The notes beneath the pieces are model-generated. The model was not told where the DNA came from and ran no database searches. It saw only the letters and a list, made by a program, of their open reading frames with translations. 64,000 nt of DNA, from positions 3,840,001-3,904,000 of the forward strand of contig CAWIAD010000002.1 of assembly GCA_963833985.1 (NCBI GenBank), given 5' to 3'. The position numbers and the translations under genes are program-made. Numbering within the stretch: position 1 is the stretch's first letter; the number at the start of each line of letters is the position of its first letter. The DNA is from an uncultured Planctomycetaceae bacterium. Lineage in GTDB: Bacteria; Planctomycetota; Planctomycetia; Isosphaerales; Isosphaeraceae. Positions 10,877 to 48,559 of the stretch are shown piece by piece.

Positions 10877-11047
10877 TGCAGTAGACGCTCGGAGAGTCGC
10901 AGCGTCCTTCCGCCTCGCTCAATCTCTCCTTTGGATGGCGGAGCGCCCGAAGTCGACGCCGCCCAGTTCCTCCCCGGCCGCAGATGAACGCTGGTCGGAC
11001 TGGCGCCAAGGGTTGGGAGCTGCGCCCGTGCAAACCACGCGCTGGCG

Positions 11048-11133
11048 CAGGTGGCCGCCGGCCGGGTTCTGGCTTCTGCACAGGTGGCCACCAGCCCGGT
11101 TCTGGCTTCTTCTGCACATGGTGCCACCAGCCC
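11048..11133. repeat. Imperfect 33-36 bp tandem repeat, about 2.5 copies
   Basis: Copies: CAGGTGGCCGCCGGCCGGGTTCTGGCTTCTGCA, CAGGTGGCCACCAGCCCGGTTCTGGCTTCTTCTGCA, and partial CATGGTGCCACCAGCCC. Confidence 0.75.
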
Positions 11134-11387
11134 ATCGTCTCGCGGGAAGCCCTCAGGCTGCGGGTGGATTTGCAAGCACACGGCATTTCCACCGTAGACT
11201 CAATAAGACGGCAGGGCATTTGACCGCATGCCGGGCACGCATGGGCACACAAGGAGAGCGTGCCCCACGACTCTTTGACAATGCGGTGGATGGTTCGGAC
11301 CAGCGCCCGGGCCGGCGGCGCGCTGGATCCACTTTTTTGCCAGGCATGCAAGGCCGTTTGCCGGAGCAAGAGCGCCAACCTTCGCGG

Positions 11388-11483
11388 ACGAACCCAATTC
11401 GAAAAGGCGATGCAACTCCATGTGAATCAAGGATTAACGTACGTTTTTCGTGACTCGTCAGGGTGCAAAACGAAGCCAATTCG
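11388..11483. repeat. Paired 14-mer direct repeat ACGAA(C/G)CCAATTCG
   Basis: Copies at 11388-11401 and 11470-11483, one mismatch, 82-bp period, AT-richer spacer. Confidence 0.6.
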
Positions 11484-11785: not shown

Positions 11786-13321
11786 ATGCTCGCCAAGCTT
11801 TTTTCCTACACGCTCATCGGTATCGACGCGGCCCCAGTGGAGGTCGAGGTCGACGTCTCGGCCTCGTCGATGCCCAAGACCGTGCTGGTGGGCCTGGCGG
11901 AAGCGGCGGTCAAGGAGAGCACCCACCGCGTCGAGCGCGCCATTGTGAATTCGGGCTTCCGCCGGCCGACCGACCGGATCGTCATCAACCTCGCCCCGGC
12001 CGACGTCAAGAAGGATGCCAACGGCTTCGACTTGCCGATCGCGCTGGGGTTGCTGCTGGGCAGTGCGCAGGTGGCGTATGACCGACCCGGAAACTTCGCG
12101 ATCGTCGGCGAGCTGGCGCTCACCGGCGAGACGCGCCCGGTGAAGGGGATCCTCTCGATGGCCCTCCAGGCGGTGATCGAGGGCCGCGACGGCATCCTTG
12201 TTCCCACGGCCAACGCCTCGGAGGCCGCCGTGGTCGAGGGGCTGAGCGTCTATCCCGTGGGCAGCCTCGCCGAGGCCGTCGCCTTCCTCTCCGGCCAGGT
12301 CGACATGGACCCGGAATCCGTCGACCTGGAGGAGCTCTTCGCCCAGCACTCGCACCTGGACGAGGACTTCGTCGACGTGAAGGGCCAGGACTACGCCAAG
12401 CGGGCCCTGCTGATCGCCGCGGCCGGCTGCCACAACGTGCTCATGATCGGTCCGCCGGGCACCGGCAAGACGCTCCTGGCCAAGCGCCTGCCCACGATCC
12501 TGCCCCCGCTCACGCCAGGCGAGAGCCTGGAGACCACCCGCATCTACAGCGCGATGGGAAGGCTTCAGCCGGGTCAGTCGCTCATGGCCGTGCGCCCGTT
12601 CTGCACGCCGCACCACTCGATCAGCGACGCGGGACTGGTGGGCGGCGGCAATCCGCCCCAGCCCGGACAGATCTCCATGGCCCACAAGGGCGTGCTCTTC
12701 CTCGACGAGATGCCCGAGTTCAACCGCAAGACGCTGGAGGTGCTCCGTCAGCCGCTGGAGGAGGGCAAGGTCACCATCAGCCGGGCGATGAACAGCTCGA
12801 CCTTCCCCGCCGACTTCATCCTGGTCGCCGCCATGAACCCGTGCCCATGCGGCTACAGGTCGGATCCCCGCCGGGCTTGCTCATGCACTCCGCCGCAAGT
12901 GGAAAAATACCTCAGCAAGATCTCCGGTCCGCTCCTGGATCGCATCGATCTGCACGTGGAGGTGCCGGCGGTCCCCTTCACGCAGCTTGCCGAGATGCCG
13001 CCGGGTCCGCCCTCGAGCGACTTCCGCGCCCAGGTGCTGGCCGCGCGCGAGCGGCAAACGAAGCGGTTCGGCCACAAGGGGACGCAGGTCAACGGCCGGA
13101 TGACCCCGCGCCAGATCAGGAAAGTGTGCCAGCTTCGGCCCGAGGCGATGTCCATCTTGAAGGCGGCCATGGAAGAGCTGGGCCTCTCCGCACGTGCTCA
13201 CGACAAGATCCTGCGGGTGGCGCGGACCATCGCCGACCTGGAAGACTCCGCCGAGATCCAGCCCCAGCACATCGCCGAGGCGGTGGGATATCGGTCGCTC
13301 GACCGCAGCGTGTGGATGTGA
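11786..13321 (+). CDS. comM: ComM/YifB Mg-chelatase-like AAA+ ATPase (intact copy)
   Basis: [59 protein letters not shown] and RVARTIADL motifs. Confidence 0.97.
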   Translation: MLAKLFSYTLIGIDAAPVEVEVDVSASSMPKTVLVGLAEAAVKESTHRVERAIVNSGFRRPTDRIVINLAPADVKKDANGFDLPIALGLLLGSAQVAYDRPGNFAIVGELALTGETRPVKGILSMALQAVIEGRDGILVPTANASEAAVVEGLSVYPVGSLAEAVAFLSGQVDMDPESVDLEELFAQHSHLDEDFVDVKGQDYAKRALLIAAAGCHNVLMIGPPGTGKTLLAKRLPTILPPLTPGESLETTRIYSAMGRLQPGQSLMAVRPFCTPHHSISDAGLVGGGNPPQPGQISMAHKGVLFLDEMPEFNRKTLEVLRQPLEEGKVTISRAMNSSTFPADFILVAAMNPCPCGYRSDPRRACSCTPPQVEKYLSKISGPLLDRIDLHVEVPAVPFTQLAEMPPGPPSSDFRAQVLAARERQTKRFGHKGTQVNGRMTPRQIRKVCQLRPEAMSILKAAMEELGLSARAHDKILRVARTIADLEDSAEIQPQHIAEAVGYRSLDRSVWM

Positions 13322-13374
13322 TGGTCGGGCAGGCAGACGACTGTTAGAATTCAGGAAGGAGAGTGAGTCTCGGA

Positions 13375-13659
13375 ATGCCCTACGAGATCCGTTACTCGAA
13401 CGAGGCAGTCGAGCAACTCAGGAGGCTCAGGGTCTTCGACCGAACCGCGATTCTCGATCAGATAGAGCAGGTTCTGAGAGTAAATCATACGATCGTGAAC
13501 AAGTCGCGAGTCAAGCAGCTTCGCGAGCCCGCACCGACTCAATATCGACTTCGGGTCGGCGAGTTCCGCGTCTTCTACGCCGTGGCAGAAGAGGCCGTCC
13601 TCATCATTCAGGTGTTCAGCAAGCAAGATTCGATCGACTACCTCGGAGAATCGCCATGA
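13375..13659 (+). CDS. RelE/ParE family toxin
   Basis: About 94 aa. YEIRYSNEAVEQL and YRLRVGEFRVFY motifs. GGAG RBS upstream. Confidence 0.88.
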   Translation: MPYEIRYSNEAVEQLRRLRVFDRTAILDQIEQVLRVNHTIVNKSRVKQLREPAPTQYRLRVGEFRVFYAVAEEAVLIIQVFSKQDSIDYLGESP

Positions 13660-13910
13660 CCACACAGCCTGTCAGTGATCCGAATACGCCGATCGGCGAC
13701 ATCATCAAGGCCGCTGGCTCGCAGGGGATCGTGTTTGAATCCGAGGGTCAAGGGCGTTTTGCCCTCCTGCCGCTCGATGATGACGTGATCGATCTGCTCA
13801 TCGAGCGAAGTCCGAAGTTCCGCGCGGACTGTCAGGAGATCCGCGATCGTATGAACTCGGGACAGTTCCAGACTCACGAGGACCTCAAAAGGCAACTGCT
13901 TGGAGAGTGA
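13656..13910 (+). CDS. Putative cognate antitoxin
   Basis: 84-aa acidic ORF with ATGA overlap on the toxin stop. Confidence 0.7.
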   Translation: MTTQPVSDPNTPIGDIIKAAGSQGIVFESEGQGRFALLPLDDDVIDLLIERSPKFRADCQEIRDRMNSGQFQTHEDLKRQLLGE

Positions 13911-14030
13911 CTCTGGGAGCCCCAGTGGGACTGCGCCTTGCCTCCGAAAGCTGCCCCATGACGGACACGTTCAGGGTGGGAAACAAATTCCCCAGGGTTC
14001 GCAGCCTGCGACGACAATCAGGCATGTCCC

Positions 14031-15510
14031 GAATGCCGCGAAGTTAATTTTAACTAATTGTGCCATTTGATCTTGCGCCATGGGTGAGGCTCCGGGCATC
14101 CTGTGGGAAGTACCAGGACCCACAGTTGCTGGAGGGAGCCCCACCCATGCCGCCTCGCATCATCCCTATTCTCGATCGACTGCGCCAAGATATCGCCGCG
14201 GGATTGTCCCGGGAGACGATCGAAGAAGCCTGCCGCCAGGCGAAACACCGCTGGCGGAATCGCGTTCTCGACCCCGCGACGACCATTTATCTGTTCCTTC
14301 TCCAGGTCCTTCATGGCAACACGGCTTGTCGCCACGTGGTGCACTTCGGCGCTTGGACCTTCACCGACAGCGCCTACTGCCTGGCGCGAAAGCGGCTTCC
14401 GCTGGCCGTCTTCGACTGGCTCGTGGAGCGGACCGCTGCCGCCGTGCGGACTGCTTCGGATGGCGCGCGGTGGCTCGGGCACCGAATCTGGGTCGTCGAC
14501 AGCTCCAGCTTCTCCATGCCGGACCAACCAGAACTGCAACGTCACTTCGGCCAACCCAGCGGTCAACGCAAGGGCTGTGGCTTCCCGGTGGCGAAATGGC
14601 TGGCCCTCTTCGACGTCACCACCGGCATGCTTCTGCGTTCGAGGACGGCCCCTTTGCGGACCCACGAGATGTCCCAGGTTGGCCCGATCTCCGACGGCCT
14701 GGAGCCGGGAGACATCGTGCTCGGTGACCGCGGATTTTGCTCGTATGCTCATCTGGCGATATTACTGCAACGCGGTCTGCATGCGGTTTTCCGCGTGCAC
14801 CAGCAGCAGATCGTCGATTTCACGCCGGGTCGTCCGATGGCCAGGAGGAAGGGTCCGTACCCCAGGCCGCAGGGTCTGCCGAGTTCGCGGTGGGTGTTGG
14901 CGCAGGGAACCGCAGATCAGATTGTCACATGGTTTAAATCGAAATCCCATCCGAAGTGGATGTCGGCGGATGAGTTCGAGGTGCTGCCCTCCGAGATCAC
15001 CGTGCGCGAGCTGAGGTACCGGGTCGAGACACCCGGGTATCGGGTGCGCGAAATCACGCTGGTCACGACTCTGTTAGACGCATCGACCTACCCGGCGACA
15101 GAGCTGGCCGAACTCTACTACAAGAGGTGGAGAGTCGAACTCAATTTTCGTCATATAAAGATTAGCATGAAGATGGATGTTCTGCGTTGCGAGACAGTCG
15201 AAGGGGTTCTCAAAGAGCTGGCGATTTTCAGCCTGGCGTATAACCTGGTAAGATCGGTCATGCTGGAGTCGGCACGCATGCGCGGCGTTGATCCGGATCG
15301 GATCGGCTTGATCGACGCGGTGCGCTGGCTGATCGGGTCCGAAGGGGGTTCTGAGCCCGCGCGGATCGTCATCAACCCATTGCGCCGTGGACGCGTCGAG
15401 CCCCGAGTCGTAAAGCGACGACCAAAACAATACATGCGGATGACTAGGCCCAGATCCGAACTCCGCAAACAGTTGCCAATGAAGCACTTCTGACTAACTT
15501 TGTGGCATTC
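14031..15510 (+). mobile_element. IS4-family insertion sequence, 1480 bp
   Basis: Terminal inverted repeats GAATGCCGCGAAGTTA and TAACTTTGTGGCATTC. 11-bp target duplication AGGCATGTCCC at 14020-14030 and 15511-15521. Confidence 0.93.
14147..15493 (+). CDS. IS4-family DDE transposase
   Basis: VVDSS, LGDRGF and the YREK-type motif LYYKRWRVELNFRHIK. Confidence 0.93.
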   Translation: MPPRIIPILDRLRQDIAAGLSRETIEEACRQAKHRWRNRVLDPATTIYLFLLQVLHGNTACRHVVHFGAWTFTDSAYCLARKRLPLAVFDWLVERTAAAVRTASDGARWLGHRIWVVDSSSFSMPDQPELQRHFGQPSGQRKGCGFPVAKWLALFDVTTGMLLRSRTAPLRTHEMSQVGPISDGLEPGDIVLGDRGFCSYAHLAILLQRGLHAVFRVHQQQIVDFTPGRPMARRKGPYPRPQGLPSSRWVLAQGTADQIVTWFKSKSHPKWMSADEFEVLPSEITVRELRYRVETPGYRVREITLVTTLLDASTYPATELAELYYKRWRVELNFRHIKISMKMDVLRCETVEGVLKELAIFSLAYNLVRSVMLESARMRGVDPDRIGLIDAVRWLIGSEGGSEPARIVINPLRRGRVEPRVVKRRPKQYMRMTRPRSELRKQLPMKHF

Positions 15511-15590
15511 AGGCATGTCCCCCTCGACCTCTCCTTCTCCGGAACGACAGAACAGAGGCGATATCCCGCCTCAAGAAATTAGCTCAGTCG

Positions 15591-15911
15591 ATGGAACAGA
15601 ACGTCAGCACCTTGAGCAGTGCCGAGAAGAAGCTTGAGGAAATTCAAGTGCGAGCAAGAGCGGCGGCTCAAATCCTCAATCGACTCGCTGCGGCCCTCGA
15701 ACTTTCCAATAAGCTTGGAGGGGGCGGCTTTTTCGGAAATTATCTGCTCTTGAACCAATTTGACGCAATGCAGTTGTCCAGTAATGTGAGAACTATTGCC
15801 ACGGATGCAAACAACAAGCTTGAGGAAGTCGGGCGCGTTCTCCCTCAAGAAAGGCAACGCCTGAACAATCTGAAGACCAATCTTAGGACAATTTTTAATA
15901 TTGACATATAA
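15591..15911 (+). CDS. Hypothetical helical protein of lower GC, possibly a 3' gene fragment
   Basis: 106-aa ORF with AT-richer codons than its flanks. No recognisable motif. Confidence 0.5.
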   Translation: MEQNVSTLSSAEKKLEEIQVRARAAAQILNRLAAALELSNKLGGGGFFGNYLLLNQFDAMQLSSNVRTIATDANNKLEEVGRVLPQERQRLNNLKTNLRTIFNIDI

Positions 15912-15942
15912 TAACATGCCTAAGACAGGTCTTGCGTGGAGG

Positions 15943-16350
15943 CTAGGGAATCATCGGCCCGATGGGGCCGGGCCTAAACACACTGCGAAGGATCGCCACA
16001 ACCTCCTCGCCGGTCACCTCGCGGCGGTCCAGGCGTAGCAGGGCGTCGGCCAGCGCCTCAACATGTCGCCAGTACATCTCCAGGTACAAGGCGGTCCGAG
16101 CGGCCATCCGATCGAGATAGGACTCAACCCCCTCCCGCCCGGCATGCGGGATGAGATAGATCAGCCCGGCGAGGTCCGCCGGGTTGAGGTGCTTGCGCGG
16201 GCAGCGTCCCCGGAAACGAGATTCCGCAAGCTCCCCGGCGAGGGAGATCAGGGCCTCCCGCTCGGCGAGAGCGCGGCACCTCGGTTCTCGGAGATCGAGG
16301 TCGGTGGGGAGAGGGGACAGCACGACGCATCCGGCCTCTACCCTGTACTT
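15943..16350 (-). pseudogene. C-terminal fragment of a peptidase M41-like protein
   Basis: ISLAGELAE and HVEALADALL..REVTGEEV resemble the M41 C-terminus. No HExxH seen upstream. Confidence 0.5.
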
Positions 16351-16962
16351 CGGGTCGGCCCCCAATCCGTTCGCGACGTCGGGTAACAGCGAGATCACGC
16401 TGCAAAGTTCTGGGGACGCCATACCCAATTCGATCACGCTGGAATCGACCGAGTCAGGATCGTCACCAGTAGAGCATGCGGTGAACGCCCGCACCTCTCC
16501 GCTTCGCAAGCGCACTCCGGCCGACGTCAAGAAGGATGCCAACGGCTTCGACTTGCCCATCGCGCTGGGGTTGCTGCTGGGCAGTGCGCAGGTGGCCTAT
16601 GACCGCCCCGGAAACTTCGCGATCGTCGGCGAGCTGGCCCTTACCGGCGAGACGCGCCCTGTGAAGGGGATCCTCTCGATGGCCCTCCAGGCGGTGATCG
16701 AGGGCCGCGACGGCATCCTGGTCCCCACGGCCAACGCCTCGGAGGCCGCCGTGGTCGAGGGGCTGAGCGTCTATCCCGTGGACAGCCTCGCCGAGGCCGT
16801 CGCCTTCCTCTCCGGCCAGGTCGACATGGACCCGGAATCCGTCGACCTGGAGGAGCTCTTCGCCCAGCACTCGCACATGGACGAGGACTTCGTCGACGTG
16901 AAGGGCCAGGACTACGCCAAGCGGGCCCTGCTGATCGCCGCGGCCGGCTGCCACAACGTGCT

Positions 16963-17170
16963 AACATTGTGGTCGATTACACCCTCTCTGGTTGATTCGT
17001 TCTGGAGATCAGCAATGGACCTTCTGTTTTTCTTGGCGTGTGCCGTTCTCGGTGCTGGGTCTCTCGTTTCCCACTCGCTTTTGCGAATTGCGAAGGCGTT
17101 GGAAGAGAGGAATCGGCTCGAAAGTCGGCAGACGCAGCCGTGATGTCAATACTGGCGGCTGCAACCTGCT
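16963..17170 (+). mobile_element. 208-bp non-autonomous one-gene cassette inserted at the comM HNVL|M site
   Basis: Absent from the intact copy. Flanked by CAACGTGCT (16954-16962) and CAACCTGCT (17162-17170). Confidence 0.75.
17015..17143 (+). CDS. 42-aa single-TM small protein (cassette cargo)
   Basis: GGAG RBS 7 nt upstream. Sequence MDLLFFLACAVLGAGSLVSHSLLRIAKALEERNRLESRQTQP is a hydrophobic helix plus a charged tail. Confidence 0.65.
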   Translation: MDLLFFLACAVLGAGSLVSHSLLRIAKALEERNRLESRQTQP

Positions 17171-18097
17171 CATGATCGGTCCGCCGGGCACCGGCAAGAC
17201 GCTGCTGGCCAAGCGCCTGCCCACGATCCTGCCGCCCCTCACGCCCGGCGAGAGCCTGGAGACCACCCGCATCTACAGCGCGATGGGGCGGCTCCAGCCG
17301 GGTCAGTCGCTCATGGCCGTGCGCCCCTTCTGCACTCCGCACCACTCGATCAGCGATGCGGGGCTGGTGGGCGGCGGCAATCCGCCCCAGCCCGGACAGA
17401 TCTCCATGGCCCACAAGGGCGTGCTCTTCCTCGACGAGATGCCCGAGTTCAACCGCAAGACCCTGGAGGTGCTCCGTCAGCCGCTGGAGGAGGGGAAGGT
17501 CACCATCAGCCGGGCGATGAACAGCTCGACCTTCCCCGCCGACTTCATCCTGGTCGCCGCCATGAACCCGTGCCCCTGCGGATACCGCTCCGATCCCCGC
17601 CGGGCTTGCTCGTGCACTCCGCCGCAAGTGGAAAAATACCTCAGCAAGATCTCCGGCCCGCTGCTGGATCGCATCGACCTGCACGTGGAGGTGCCCGCCG
17701 TCCCCTTCACGCAGCTTGCCGAGATGCCGCCGGGTCCGCCCTCGAGCGACTTCCGCGCCCAGGTGCTGGCCGCGCGCGAGCGGCAAACGAAGCGGTTCGG
17801 CCACAAGGGCCCCCAGGTCAATGGCCGCATGACTCCGCGGCAGCTTCGCAAGCTGTGTGCCCTCAAGCCAGAGGCGATGACGATCCTCAAGGCCGCCATG
17901 GAGGAGCTCGGCTTATCGGCGCGCGCTCACGACAAGGTGCTGCGCGTGGACCGCACCATTGCCGACCTGGAAGACTCCGCCGAGATCCAGCCCCAGCACA
18001 TCGCCGAAGCGGTCGGCTACAGGTCGCTCGACCGCAGCGTGTGAATGTAGAATTGTGTTCGGAACCGAGGTCTTCCCGTACAGAGGAGCGCTCGCTG

Positions 18098-18391
18098 ATG
18101 GCAACCGGACAGAGCTTACAGCGCGATACGTCGAGTGAACTGGCCATCTTCGCGCGGTTGATCAGGGCCGACGCTTCCCACCTCTCGCGCAACCTGGCCC
18201 GCTACATCCTCACACTCGGTTTCGATGCCGCGGATCAAAATAGGATGACGGATCTGGCGGAGCGGAACCAGGCTGGCACCTTGTCCGGAGAGGGGAAGGC
18301 AGAACTGGAGCATTTCGTCAAAGCGGGACACTTGTTAGCCCTGCTGCACTCGAAGGCCAGAATCGCCTTGAAAGTCAAGAGGACGAAATGA
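18098..18391 (+). CDS. Small helical hypothetical protein, antitoxin-like partner of the HNH gene
   Basis: GAGGAG RBS. 97 aa with RMTDLAERNQAGTLS..EL. Directly upstream of the HNH gene. Confidence 0.7.
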   Translation: MATGQSLQRDTSSELAIFARLIRADASHLSRNLARYILTLGFDAADQNRMTDLAERNQAGTLSGEGKAELEHFVKAGHLLALLHSKARIALKVKRTK

Positions 18392-18398
18392 GGCCGCC

Positions 18399-18540
18399 AT
18401 GGAGTCATCGCTCGCTCGAGAGGTGAGGGAGCGAGCATGGCACGCCTGTGAGTACTGCCGGATGCCCCAGTCTTGTTATCCGACGGTTCCGTTTCCCATC
18501 GACCATATCGTCGCCCGCCAGCACGGTGGTGAGACCACGA
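18399..18540 (+). pseudogene. Truncated HNH endonuclease
   Basis: VRERAWHACEYCR...IDHIVARQHGG is present, but the downstream NL..C..CN half is missing. Confidence 0.75.
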
Positions 18541-19108
18541 AAGTGCTCCGACATGAGGCAATTGACCGAGGACACTGGGTGTCCAGGGCAAATGGGGCCA
18601 GCCCATCGTTTTCCAGAAACATGGATCGGAAGAAATTGTTCTCATATGCCATTATCGGAGTCGTGTCAGTATGCCCCGAGCACGCTCGGAAATCGTCTGC
18701 CTCCATGACGCCAGTGCGTGTTTCTGGCAGGGACTGGTCGAACTCAGCGGCTACCCGAACGCCTACCGGCGTCTTTTCGACAGGTTCGACCGCGAGGCCA
18801 CGCTTCTCGCATTCAGTGCTGGCTCGCGGAGGCTGGCTTACGCGACGTTCGAGCCATCCCTCTGCTCCAACCGGATGGGCCCGGCTCCTCGCCCAGGCTG
18901 ACACAGGGCGCGCGAGCTGAGATTGGGAGCGCGTCGCCCGAGGGGCAAGCAGGACCCCGCAATCAACGGCCACGGCCTGGGCATCGGCCGTGCCGAGGGG
19001 GAGTCGCACGGATGGGCGGCTCTGCTTATCATGGGAAAGACCCGGGGACGTACTGCCCGCCGAATCGTCGCGGGCTCGATGTCGCGGAGAGGAAGAGACG
19101 AGGTGCTC

Positions 19109-48410: not shown

Positions 48411-48559
48411 GACTCTCTCTCCTTCGTGAATTCTGACAGTCCTCTGCTTGCCCGACCACCACATCCACACGCTTCAATCCAGCGACTGGTAGCCGACCGC
48501 CTCGGCTATGTGCTGGGGCTGGATCTCGGTGGAGTCTTCCAGGCCGGCGATCGTGCGCG
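48411..48559 (-). pseudogene. comM: comM 3'-end remnant plus 48 nt of downstream sequence
   Basis: The reverse complement aligns without gaps to 13221..13369, about 130/149 identical by hand count. Translates as RTIAGLEDSTEIQPQHIAEAVGYQSLD*. Confidence 0.88.

Follow-up and report, generated by a model that had tools for sequence, protein, structure and literature searches.

How can one gene come to stand twice in tandem, the second time without its beginning, and with different small genes behind each copy? This question is raised by comM, which encodes a DNA-uptake helicase of the YifB family, in a 64,000-nucleotide stretch of DNA (the window) from an uncultured Planctomycetaceae bacterium. 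The window occupies C2:3840001-3904000 of the source genome, G000, which comprises 10.16 Mb in two contigs and is 96% complete with 3.9% contamination. Here, a whole comM is followed by a relE pair, an IS4-family element, a comM segment that starts at codon 71, and a small gene with an HNH gene; the coordinates and families we obtained bear out this order, which had been given in an initial annotation. The arrangement is probably the result of integrase-free insertion-duplication by homologous recombination, overlaid on a known hot spot for large serine recombinases (LSRs).

The intact gene (copy 1; 11786..13321, plus strand) encodes 511 aa and can be assigned to ComM/YifB, as it matches TIGR00368 with 577 bits (cut-off 362) and contains the ChlI, Mg_chelatase and C-terminal domains. 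Copy 2 spans 16517-18050 and covers codons 71-509 in two pieces. The first (codons 71-219; 16517..16962, plus strand) is 97.7% identical to copy 1, and the second (codon 219 to the end; 17169..18050, plus strand) is 96% identical up to codon 430 and 78–90% identical thereafter. A direct repeat of ~1.3 kb with a period of 4521 bp had been described previously. This period applies to codons 71-219, but the part from codon 219 to the end lies at an offset of 4729 bp, because a 208-bp insert at codon 219 splits copy 2.

Most of the differences between the copies are silent. As had been reported for the first ~210 nt, all 8 differences in codons 71-140 are synonymous, and over codons 71-430 we counted 31 synonymous versus 3 non-synonymous differences (p 8e-16). 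The synonymous divergence (dS) amounts to 0.075 in codons 71-218, 0.158 in codons 219-430 and 0.91 in codons 431-509; the non-synonymous divergence (dN) is 0.006 and 0.002 in the first two of these sections, and dN/dS is 0.08 overall. Within codons 71-430 the copies are 96-98% identical, whereas other species of the genus are only 77-87% identical to either of them, so both copies stem from within one species. A block of copy 1 (codons 431-478) is mosaic, with an identity of 78% to copy 2, which corresponds to a species-level distance. The amino acid contrast at the 3' end (QIRKVCQLRPEAMSI versus QLRKLCALKPEAMTI) was also found as described. Judged by their sequences, the copies are thus alleles from a single species that include one mosaic block, in agreement with the initial annotation, which had taken copy 2 for a different allele. 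The 3' ends of comM do not sort by the cargo downstream: the identities of codons 431-511 to those of relatives showed no such order. In copy 2, the changes G159D, A479D and W510stop affect positions that hardly vary among the relatives we compared, and from these changes copy 2 reads as a gene that lost its function recently.

The two ends of the codon 71-219 piece are both attachment scars of LSRs, a point that the initial annotation had not recognised. At 16481..16518 (plus strand), a foreign arm with a CC core is joined to comM at codon 70/71, forming an attR-type scar that recurs in relatives. Using the 24 bases before codon 71 (≤3 mismatches), we searched 121 genomes of the family Isosphaeraceae and found 10 matches in 8 of them; in 4 of these matches (G000, G009, G005 and G081) the arm runs into comM precisely at codon 71. 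An exact 20-base search of metagenomes gave 35 loci; 3 are joined to comM at codon 71 (L085, L088, L113), while the remaining 32 are not, many of them being an unrelated repeat. The reciprocal 5' junction, comM codons 1-70 followed by a foreign arm, is present in G002. In G116 (99% complete), a ~40-kb prophage (C1:6558000-6596500) separates codons 1-70 of comM from codons 70-511; it shares the CC core and encodes at its right end an LSR with Resolvase, Recombinase and Zn-ribbon domains. Only the attR-type side remains at codon 71 in the window. A second copy of the arm occurs in G000 away from comM (C2:5023471-5023494), where it is followed by a right arm resembling the attL of G002. Left arm and similar right arm stand together in G000 (C2:5023414-5023520), G007, L104 and L111, and look like unsplit attP sites; no recombinase gene was found near the one in G000. 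Viral searches returned 4 matches to the codon-71 arm, without comM or LSR, and none to the att219 pattern.

The 208-bp insert (16963..17170) lies at codon 219 between attL- and attR-type junctions with a CT core. It holds an open reading frame (ORF) of 42 aa (17015-17143), and its minus strand reads an NRPQ motif that equals the end of the recombinase gene of L141, a Bryobacteraceae locus in which an LSR gene terminates on the att219 arm. Since the insert keeps both attL and attR but has no recombinase or transfer genes, it can be classed from its sequence as a putative cis-mobilizable element. The left arm of att219 recurs in G024, G009, G081, G082 and G007, and inserts with attL and attR but no recombinase also occupy codon 219 in G082 (~0.6 kb) and G024 (~1.8 kb). 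LSR genes adjoin comM tails at codon 215 (G010) and codon 300 (G101), and a further recurrent junction lies near codon 353-354. The scars in the window thus have dinucleotide cores at fixed codons (CC at 70/71, CT at 219) that recur across genomes; the recombinase gene is absent from the window, but G116 and L141 each have one at the corresponding site. Inverted symmetry of the arms was seen at 9-11 of 22 positions for att71-like arms and 3 of 22 for the att219 arms of the window (one base off the core), counts that have no control set beside them.

In line with the earlier statement that no integrase is present, domain searches found neither serine nor tyrosine recombinase domains within the window. 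The whole G000 genome gave 12 LSR matches. Eleven of these are one multicopy element, whose sites match neither window arm; its 624-aa LSR is found at 11 near-identical sites (for example C1:775571-777445) and behaves like an insertion sequence. The junctions support the suggestion that mobile elements struck the older comM copy, with recombination at these scars as the step that we infer.

Copies of the comM 3' end were also observed in relatives. A query with the final 101 residues of comM matched 113 of the 121 family genomes. The tally of extra copies was made by hand and excluded frameshift-split matches, paralogs of 35-39% identity, and three genomes: G018 (two whole comM copies and three hisD), G113 (contig ends) and G116 (second match unlisted). 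Among the matches listed, beyond which lay 13 weak ones, at least 17 of the 113 genomes have a separate extra 3' copy (G000, G002, G006, G008, G010, G020, G024, G032, G069, G074, G077, G081, G082, G098, G100, G101 and G119). By comparison, hisD, the sole family-wide control gene, was matched in 114 of 121 genomes and showed no tandem near-identical extra copy. Up to six or seven tails were found per genome (G081, G074). The longest stacks count five to nine pieces of comM and are located at G081 C10:23200-61100, at G024 C96:145800-162300, and on C3 and C9 of G074.

Many of these tails do not start where an LSR would be expected to cut. Displaced copies downstream of an intact comM begin at codon 462 in G002, 481 and 495 in G008, 398 in G032, 211 in G081, 202 in G082, 473 in G119 and 495 in G077, none of which is an att codon; tails in other relatives do start at att sites (215, 219, 300, 353). 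Such variable starts fit the idea, put forward in the initial annotation, that units of comM plus cargo were added by homology. G008 repeats the order of the window (comM, relE pair, a 30-codon tail, then the 97-aa/HNH pair), and both gene pairs of the window follow comM in relatives in several combinations. Other followers include BrnT, Uma2, SocA/Panacea, DUF433/PIN and HNH genes; among hand-picked follower ORFs, 16 of the 36 non-recombinase ORFs scanned had no family match. In G002, a truncated HNH gene is joined directly to a comM tail, and in G116 and G101 a broken comM still has the recombinase in place. Rather than a single comM with invariant downstream genes, the relatives thus show variation in both copies and followers.

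The same pattern, which the initial annotation had not noted, was observed at other genes of G000. We compared 6561 genes from a simple caller with the rest of this genome, and 29 of them had a 3' copy downstream; after removal of genes with more than one distant match 19 remained, a few of these 19 being paralogs or repeat arrays. Under the same limit (≤1 distant match), only 2 genes had their 3' copy upstream, while copies of the 5' end lay upstream of 16 genes and downstream of 4. In the 13 of 23 repeats that were at least 90% identical (one array excluded), the pooled differences were 46 synonymous versus 27 non-synonymous (p 1.7e-11; expected synonymous share 0.255). Among 16 fetched tail loci, toxin-antitoxin families were seen at five (PIN twice, GNAT/TacA1, ParE and Phd), Uma2 at two, DUF4058 at one and DUF4351 at one; the 28 of 50 ORFs scanned there included a transposase at one locus and no integrase. 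Young repeats of 98-100% identity at other genes already flank foreign cargo. Since an allelic anchor with cargo is found at 18 other genes, the habit is not special to comM, and on this comparison it is a general one of G000.

Direct repeats of gene ends (100-700 bp) that flank toxin-antitoxin, Uma2 or DUF4058 cargo, free of integrase and with mostly synonymous differences, can be found for example at C1:2734766-2736190, C2:374013-375239, C2:757092-757529, C2:2736848-2737372 and C2:600575-601495. At C2:2001000-2002432 (minus strand), a gene end is present three times with a period of 172 bp. dprA (C1:1162700-1169315, minus strand), also among the genes with tails and cargo, is followed by four partial 3' copies, 80-83% identical, with cargo between them; they cover codons 318-373, 216-373, 238-325+ and 307-326. 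In G007, G011 and G069, further strong matches to the dprA C-terminal domain lie on the same contig. In G000, dprA itself is intact and recA is present.

Two processes probably overlap in the structure of the window. In the first, LSR elements insert time and again into comM at fixed sites, which are documented by their recurrence and by intact elements in other genomes. Copy 2 bears the marks of two such elements, both without their recombinases: codon 70/71 retains an attR, and codon 219 a 208-bp remnant from attL to attR. In the second, a close relative's DNA with another comM allele, relE and its partner would recombine by homology on one side only. This could proceed through homology-facilitated illegitimate recombination (HFIR) or through a single crossover of a circularised fragment; neither route would need an integrase. 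A whole comM would come to stand in front, and what remained of the resident gene would be displaced downstream together with the pair behind it. Had an element already interrupted the resident comM at codon 71, homology would end there, and the far join would fall inside the inserted element, deleting its left end and recombinase and yielding the structure seen here. The IS4 element arrived later. comM may stack more units than other genes because LSR elements keep breaking it and additions of an intact copy would restore function. The one-sided anchor, homologous and derived from a related allele (dN/dS 0.08), is what HFIR or insertion-duplication would leave. The allelic origin of the anchor can be read directly from the alignment, and one-sided recombination is the step that we infer from it. 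A Campbell-type circle and a one-sided illegitimate join look alike at this locus, as do the possible orders of damage and rescue.

Several observations weigh against this explanation. The order of a break followed by a new allele is deduced, and both scars could postdate the displacement. No illegitimate junction was located between 13910 and 16480, and no microhomology of 3-10 bp was seen there. The sequence upstream of comM in G000 is unlike that of relatives, so the left anchor cannot be traced. The 16 genes with upstream 5' copies indicate that the habit is not specific to 3' ends. In G081, a piece from att71 to att219 as in the window sits upstream of the intact comM; in G098 the tail is on the other strand, and several comM pieces are on other contigs. 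The relatives are not independent because of kinship, and several of the multi-copy genomes are only 54-75% complete and contain frameshifts. As to the scars, no recombinase was found beside the codon-71 arm matches in the 8 family genomes or in the 7 of 35 metagenome loci that were annotated, and the arms of the G116 prophage differ from the codon-71 arm of the window. The Competence domain of comEC is split over two reading frames (C2:3102822-3103702, minus strand), either by a sequencing error or because the gene is a pseudogene. A literature search, from which subscription journals were largely missing, found no paper on transformation in Planctomycetes. Four soil runs share 5-8% of words, and their contigs cover pieces of the locus without any of them spanning it. 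These contigs showed no circle and no empty att219 joint, which at 5-8% word sharing is uninformative either way.

Could the units have been stacked by site-specific integration instead? An LSR acting in trans would integrate a circle composed of the att71 arm, comM from codon 71 to the end and cargo, regenerating the gene as at ssrA and rlmH islands. Copy 2 does start exactly at an att core, many tails of relatives start at att sites (215, 219, 300, 353), and G000 has its 12 LSR matches and a second, attP-like copy of the arm (C2:5023471-5023494). However, the reciprocal junctions in G002 and G116 carry a foreign right arm, which means that LSR elements disrupt comM and bring no replacement. 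Displaced copies with a start outside the att codons number at least 8, no shared junction motif was apparent on reading through the 18 other tail-bearing genes, and 11 of the 12 LSR matches belong to the multicopy element, whose sites are unlike either arm. It thus seems unlikely that accretion of this kind accounts for the locus.

The synonymous excess would also follow from a tandem duplication in place with later allele exchange of the intact copy. According to this scheme, comM and its neighbours were duplicated, the spare copy was altered by LSR insertions and by deletions, and the intact copy with its cargo was later replaced by homology. It would account for both the att scars and the tandem arrangement, with no need for a one-sided join; the foreign-looking block at codons 431-478 of copy 1 indicates that allele exchange occurs, and G024 retains a second copy with its own upstream region. 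Against this, the three clearly damaging changes among ~985 non-synonymous sites indicate that copy 2 died recently, yet the cargo behind the copies is wholly different. More events would be required, and the 98-100% young repeats elsewhere already bracket foreign cargo. We therefore regard this scheme as improbable. The integrase-free insertion of an allelic comM with its cargo remains the explanation that we prefer.

An assembly chimera of two strain haplotypes is very unlikely. The contamination of 3.9%, the frameshifts seen in the G000 assembly, its two contigs and the lack of a spanning record would be in keeping with it, but copy 2 has its own att junctions, insert and stop codon, and the same architecture is found in fragmented assemblies of other species (G008, G119, G098). 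A contig of run X3 equals copy 2 at 16528-16665 without a difference, which is a weak hint in the same direction.

Integrons are arrays of small cargo behind a fixed point and are rich in toxin-antitoxin genes. The window differs from them in that it has no intI, its repeats showed nothing like attI or attC, and its units are bounded by gene tails. The initial annotation had spoken of integron-like accumulation, and the presence of as many as six or seven tails in one genome, with toxin-antitoxin or small nuclease genes frequently behind them, is reminiscent of such a system; a dedicated capture machinery with comM tails as programmed cassette ends is nevertheless hardly credible, because the window has no tyrosine recombinase (13 PF00589 matches lie elsewhere in G000), tail starts vary, no common or repeated cassette-boundary site was seen, and the pattern recurs at unrelated genes. 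Without application of an attC model, no attC-type repeat family was found among the repeats of the window, and an Rfam scan of the window gave no match.

The genes behind copy 1 begin with a RelE/ParE-family toxin gene (13375..13659, plus strand; PF05016, E 3e-6), which also follows comM in G001, G008 and G074. Its 84-aa partner (13656..13910, plus strand) matches no family and accompanies relE in relatives; from its position it is a putative antitoxin. The ParE/RelE match and the 4-bp overlap with the small partner fit the layout of a type II toxin-antitoxin pair, with toxicity being predicted. In the second pair, a 97-aa gene (18098..18391, plus strand) belongs to a Planctomycetota family without a name that is usually paired with HNH after comM, and the HNH gene (18399..18539, plus strand) is cut after codon 47 in comparison with a 135-aa relative in G008. 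With a cut HNH gene and a 97-aa gene lacking a named family, this pair is not an intact toxin-antitoxin system. The label "antitoxin" that both small genes had received is not supported by any named family. Toxin addiction as keeper of the old tail is a weak explanation here because the HNH gene is truncated. The sequence past the HNH break (18540-18920) has no match elsewhere in the genome or in the fetched loci.

A TAGAAT hexamer at 13345..13350 (plus strand) is a candidate -10 element for the first pair on sequence alone; the promoter scan did not call it. Of 72 comM ends inspected, with one locus counted twice, 23 have TAGAAT at or just past the stop codon, as do both window copies, and the dprA stop codon also reads TAGAAT. 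As a -10 element, it may help short tails to persist. The promoter and terminator scan of the window gave 1 and 4 sites, respectively, as in shuffled sequences.

Between the two comM copies lies an IS4-family element (14031..15510, plus strand; NF033592) with terminal inverted repeats, a transposase gene at 14147-15493, and an 11-bp direct repeat at 14020-14030 and 15511-15521. Ten further copies in G000 are 97.8-99.9% identical. We considered this element as origin of the comM duplication and ruled it out, given its own direct repeat and the near-identical copies elsewhere; its insertion is late and unrelated to the duplication. It is followed by a 106-aa low-GC orphan ORF, a single-copy cargo gene without family (15591..15911, plus strand), and by a 5'-truncated ORF without a Pfam match (15943..16398, minus strand), which is probably a relic of the element that struck codon 71. 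The latter falls into an Atlas cluster at 0.91 in which PF01434 is found on 32% of members, so a peptidase M41-like identity is a lead only.

A third comM tail (48411..48559, minus strand) comprises codons 479-511 with a stop codon and a relE-type spacer and is 87% identical to copy 1. It borders a region of lower coding density (45-48.4 kb) and may be what is left of comM at a former position. Synteny did not help to identify the resident copy, as the genes that normally flank comM upstream and downstream are found at distances of 230 kb and 860 kb. Two dispersed repeat families precede comM (10990-11410), one of ~67 bp with dozens of copies at 76-88% identity and another of 180-200 bp.

The individual parts of this picture are known: targeting of comM by LSR or Tn7-like elements, recombinase-less att relics, tandem accretion and one-sided homologous integration. 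According to PMC10083194, 12.4% of the LSRs predicted to be site-specific target the magnesium chelatase/comM gene. The elements described there resemble ours in the target gene and in dinucleotide-core junctions at fixed codons, and G116, G101, G010 and L141 carry intact ones; the window differs in that no recombinase is left, two scars are in one copy, and an intact allele stands in front. At ssrA of Dehalococcoides, recombinase-less segments between attL and attR are stacked behind a conserved gene, each unit ending in a copy of its 3' end; as far as that account goes (PMC3146451), site-specific integration creates a fixed 20-bp repeat, whereas the tails here measure ~45 bp-1.3 kb, start variably and are diverged alleles. 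HFIR and single crossovers of circularised fragments share with our locus the one homologous anchor and the absence of an integrase, and the one non-homologous join would be a further common feature; the circular route duplicates the anchor. PMC3240628 describes both routes from laboratory assays, usually with a deletion of ~1 kb, while repeated natural stacking at one gene is what we observe.

Mobile elements break comM and thereby escape removal by transformation. The AbaR and Tn7-like islands in comM of Acinetobacter are a case in point, but they are transposons, while the elements here are LSR elements and no Tn7-type genes were found; the available text on them describes no restored second allele (PMC11441513). 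The same text reports that loss of comM in Acinetobacter reduces gene-sized gains ~100-fold without abolishing them and transfer of single-nucleotide polymorphisms only ~8-fold (PMC11441513), so a host with a broken comM retains limited recombination. Neither stacked allelic comM tails nor a repair of this kind turned up in our literature search, in which subscription journals were largely missing.

For genome analysis, the consequences are that annotation and island finders will take comM tails for att repeats, and that comM offers LSR sites (codons about 70, 215, 219, 300 and 354) for recombinase mining. More tentatively, and with rather less confidence than the explanation of the locus itself, natural insertion-duplication may bring toxin-antitoxin and small nuclease genes into the genome at large with any gene end as anchor, and at comM and dprA it may repair genes broken by LSR elements, so that the stacks of tails would be a record of breaks and repairs. 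If so, toxin-antitoxin genes could spread without an integrase or a transposase, and the stacks would be an indirect sign of frequent uptake of homologous DNA in this group. Placing an entire allele ahead of the broken copy would give the host its comM back, a counter-move that leaves a countable record.

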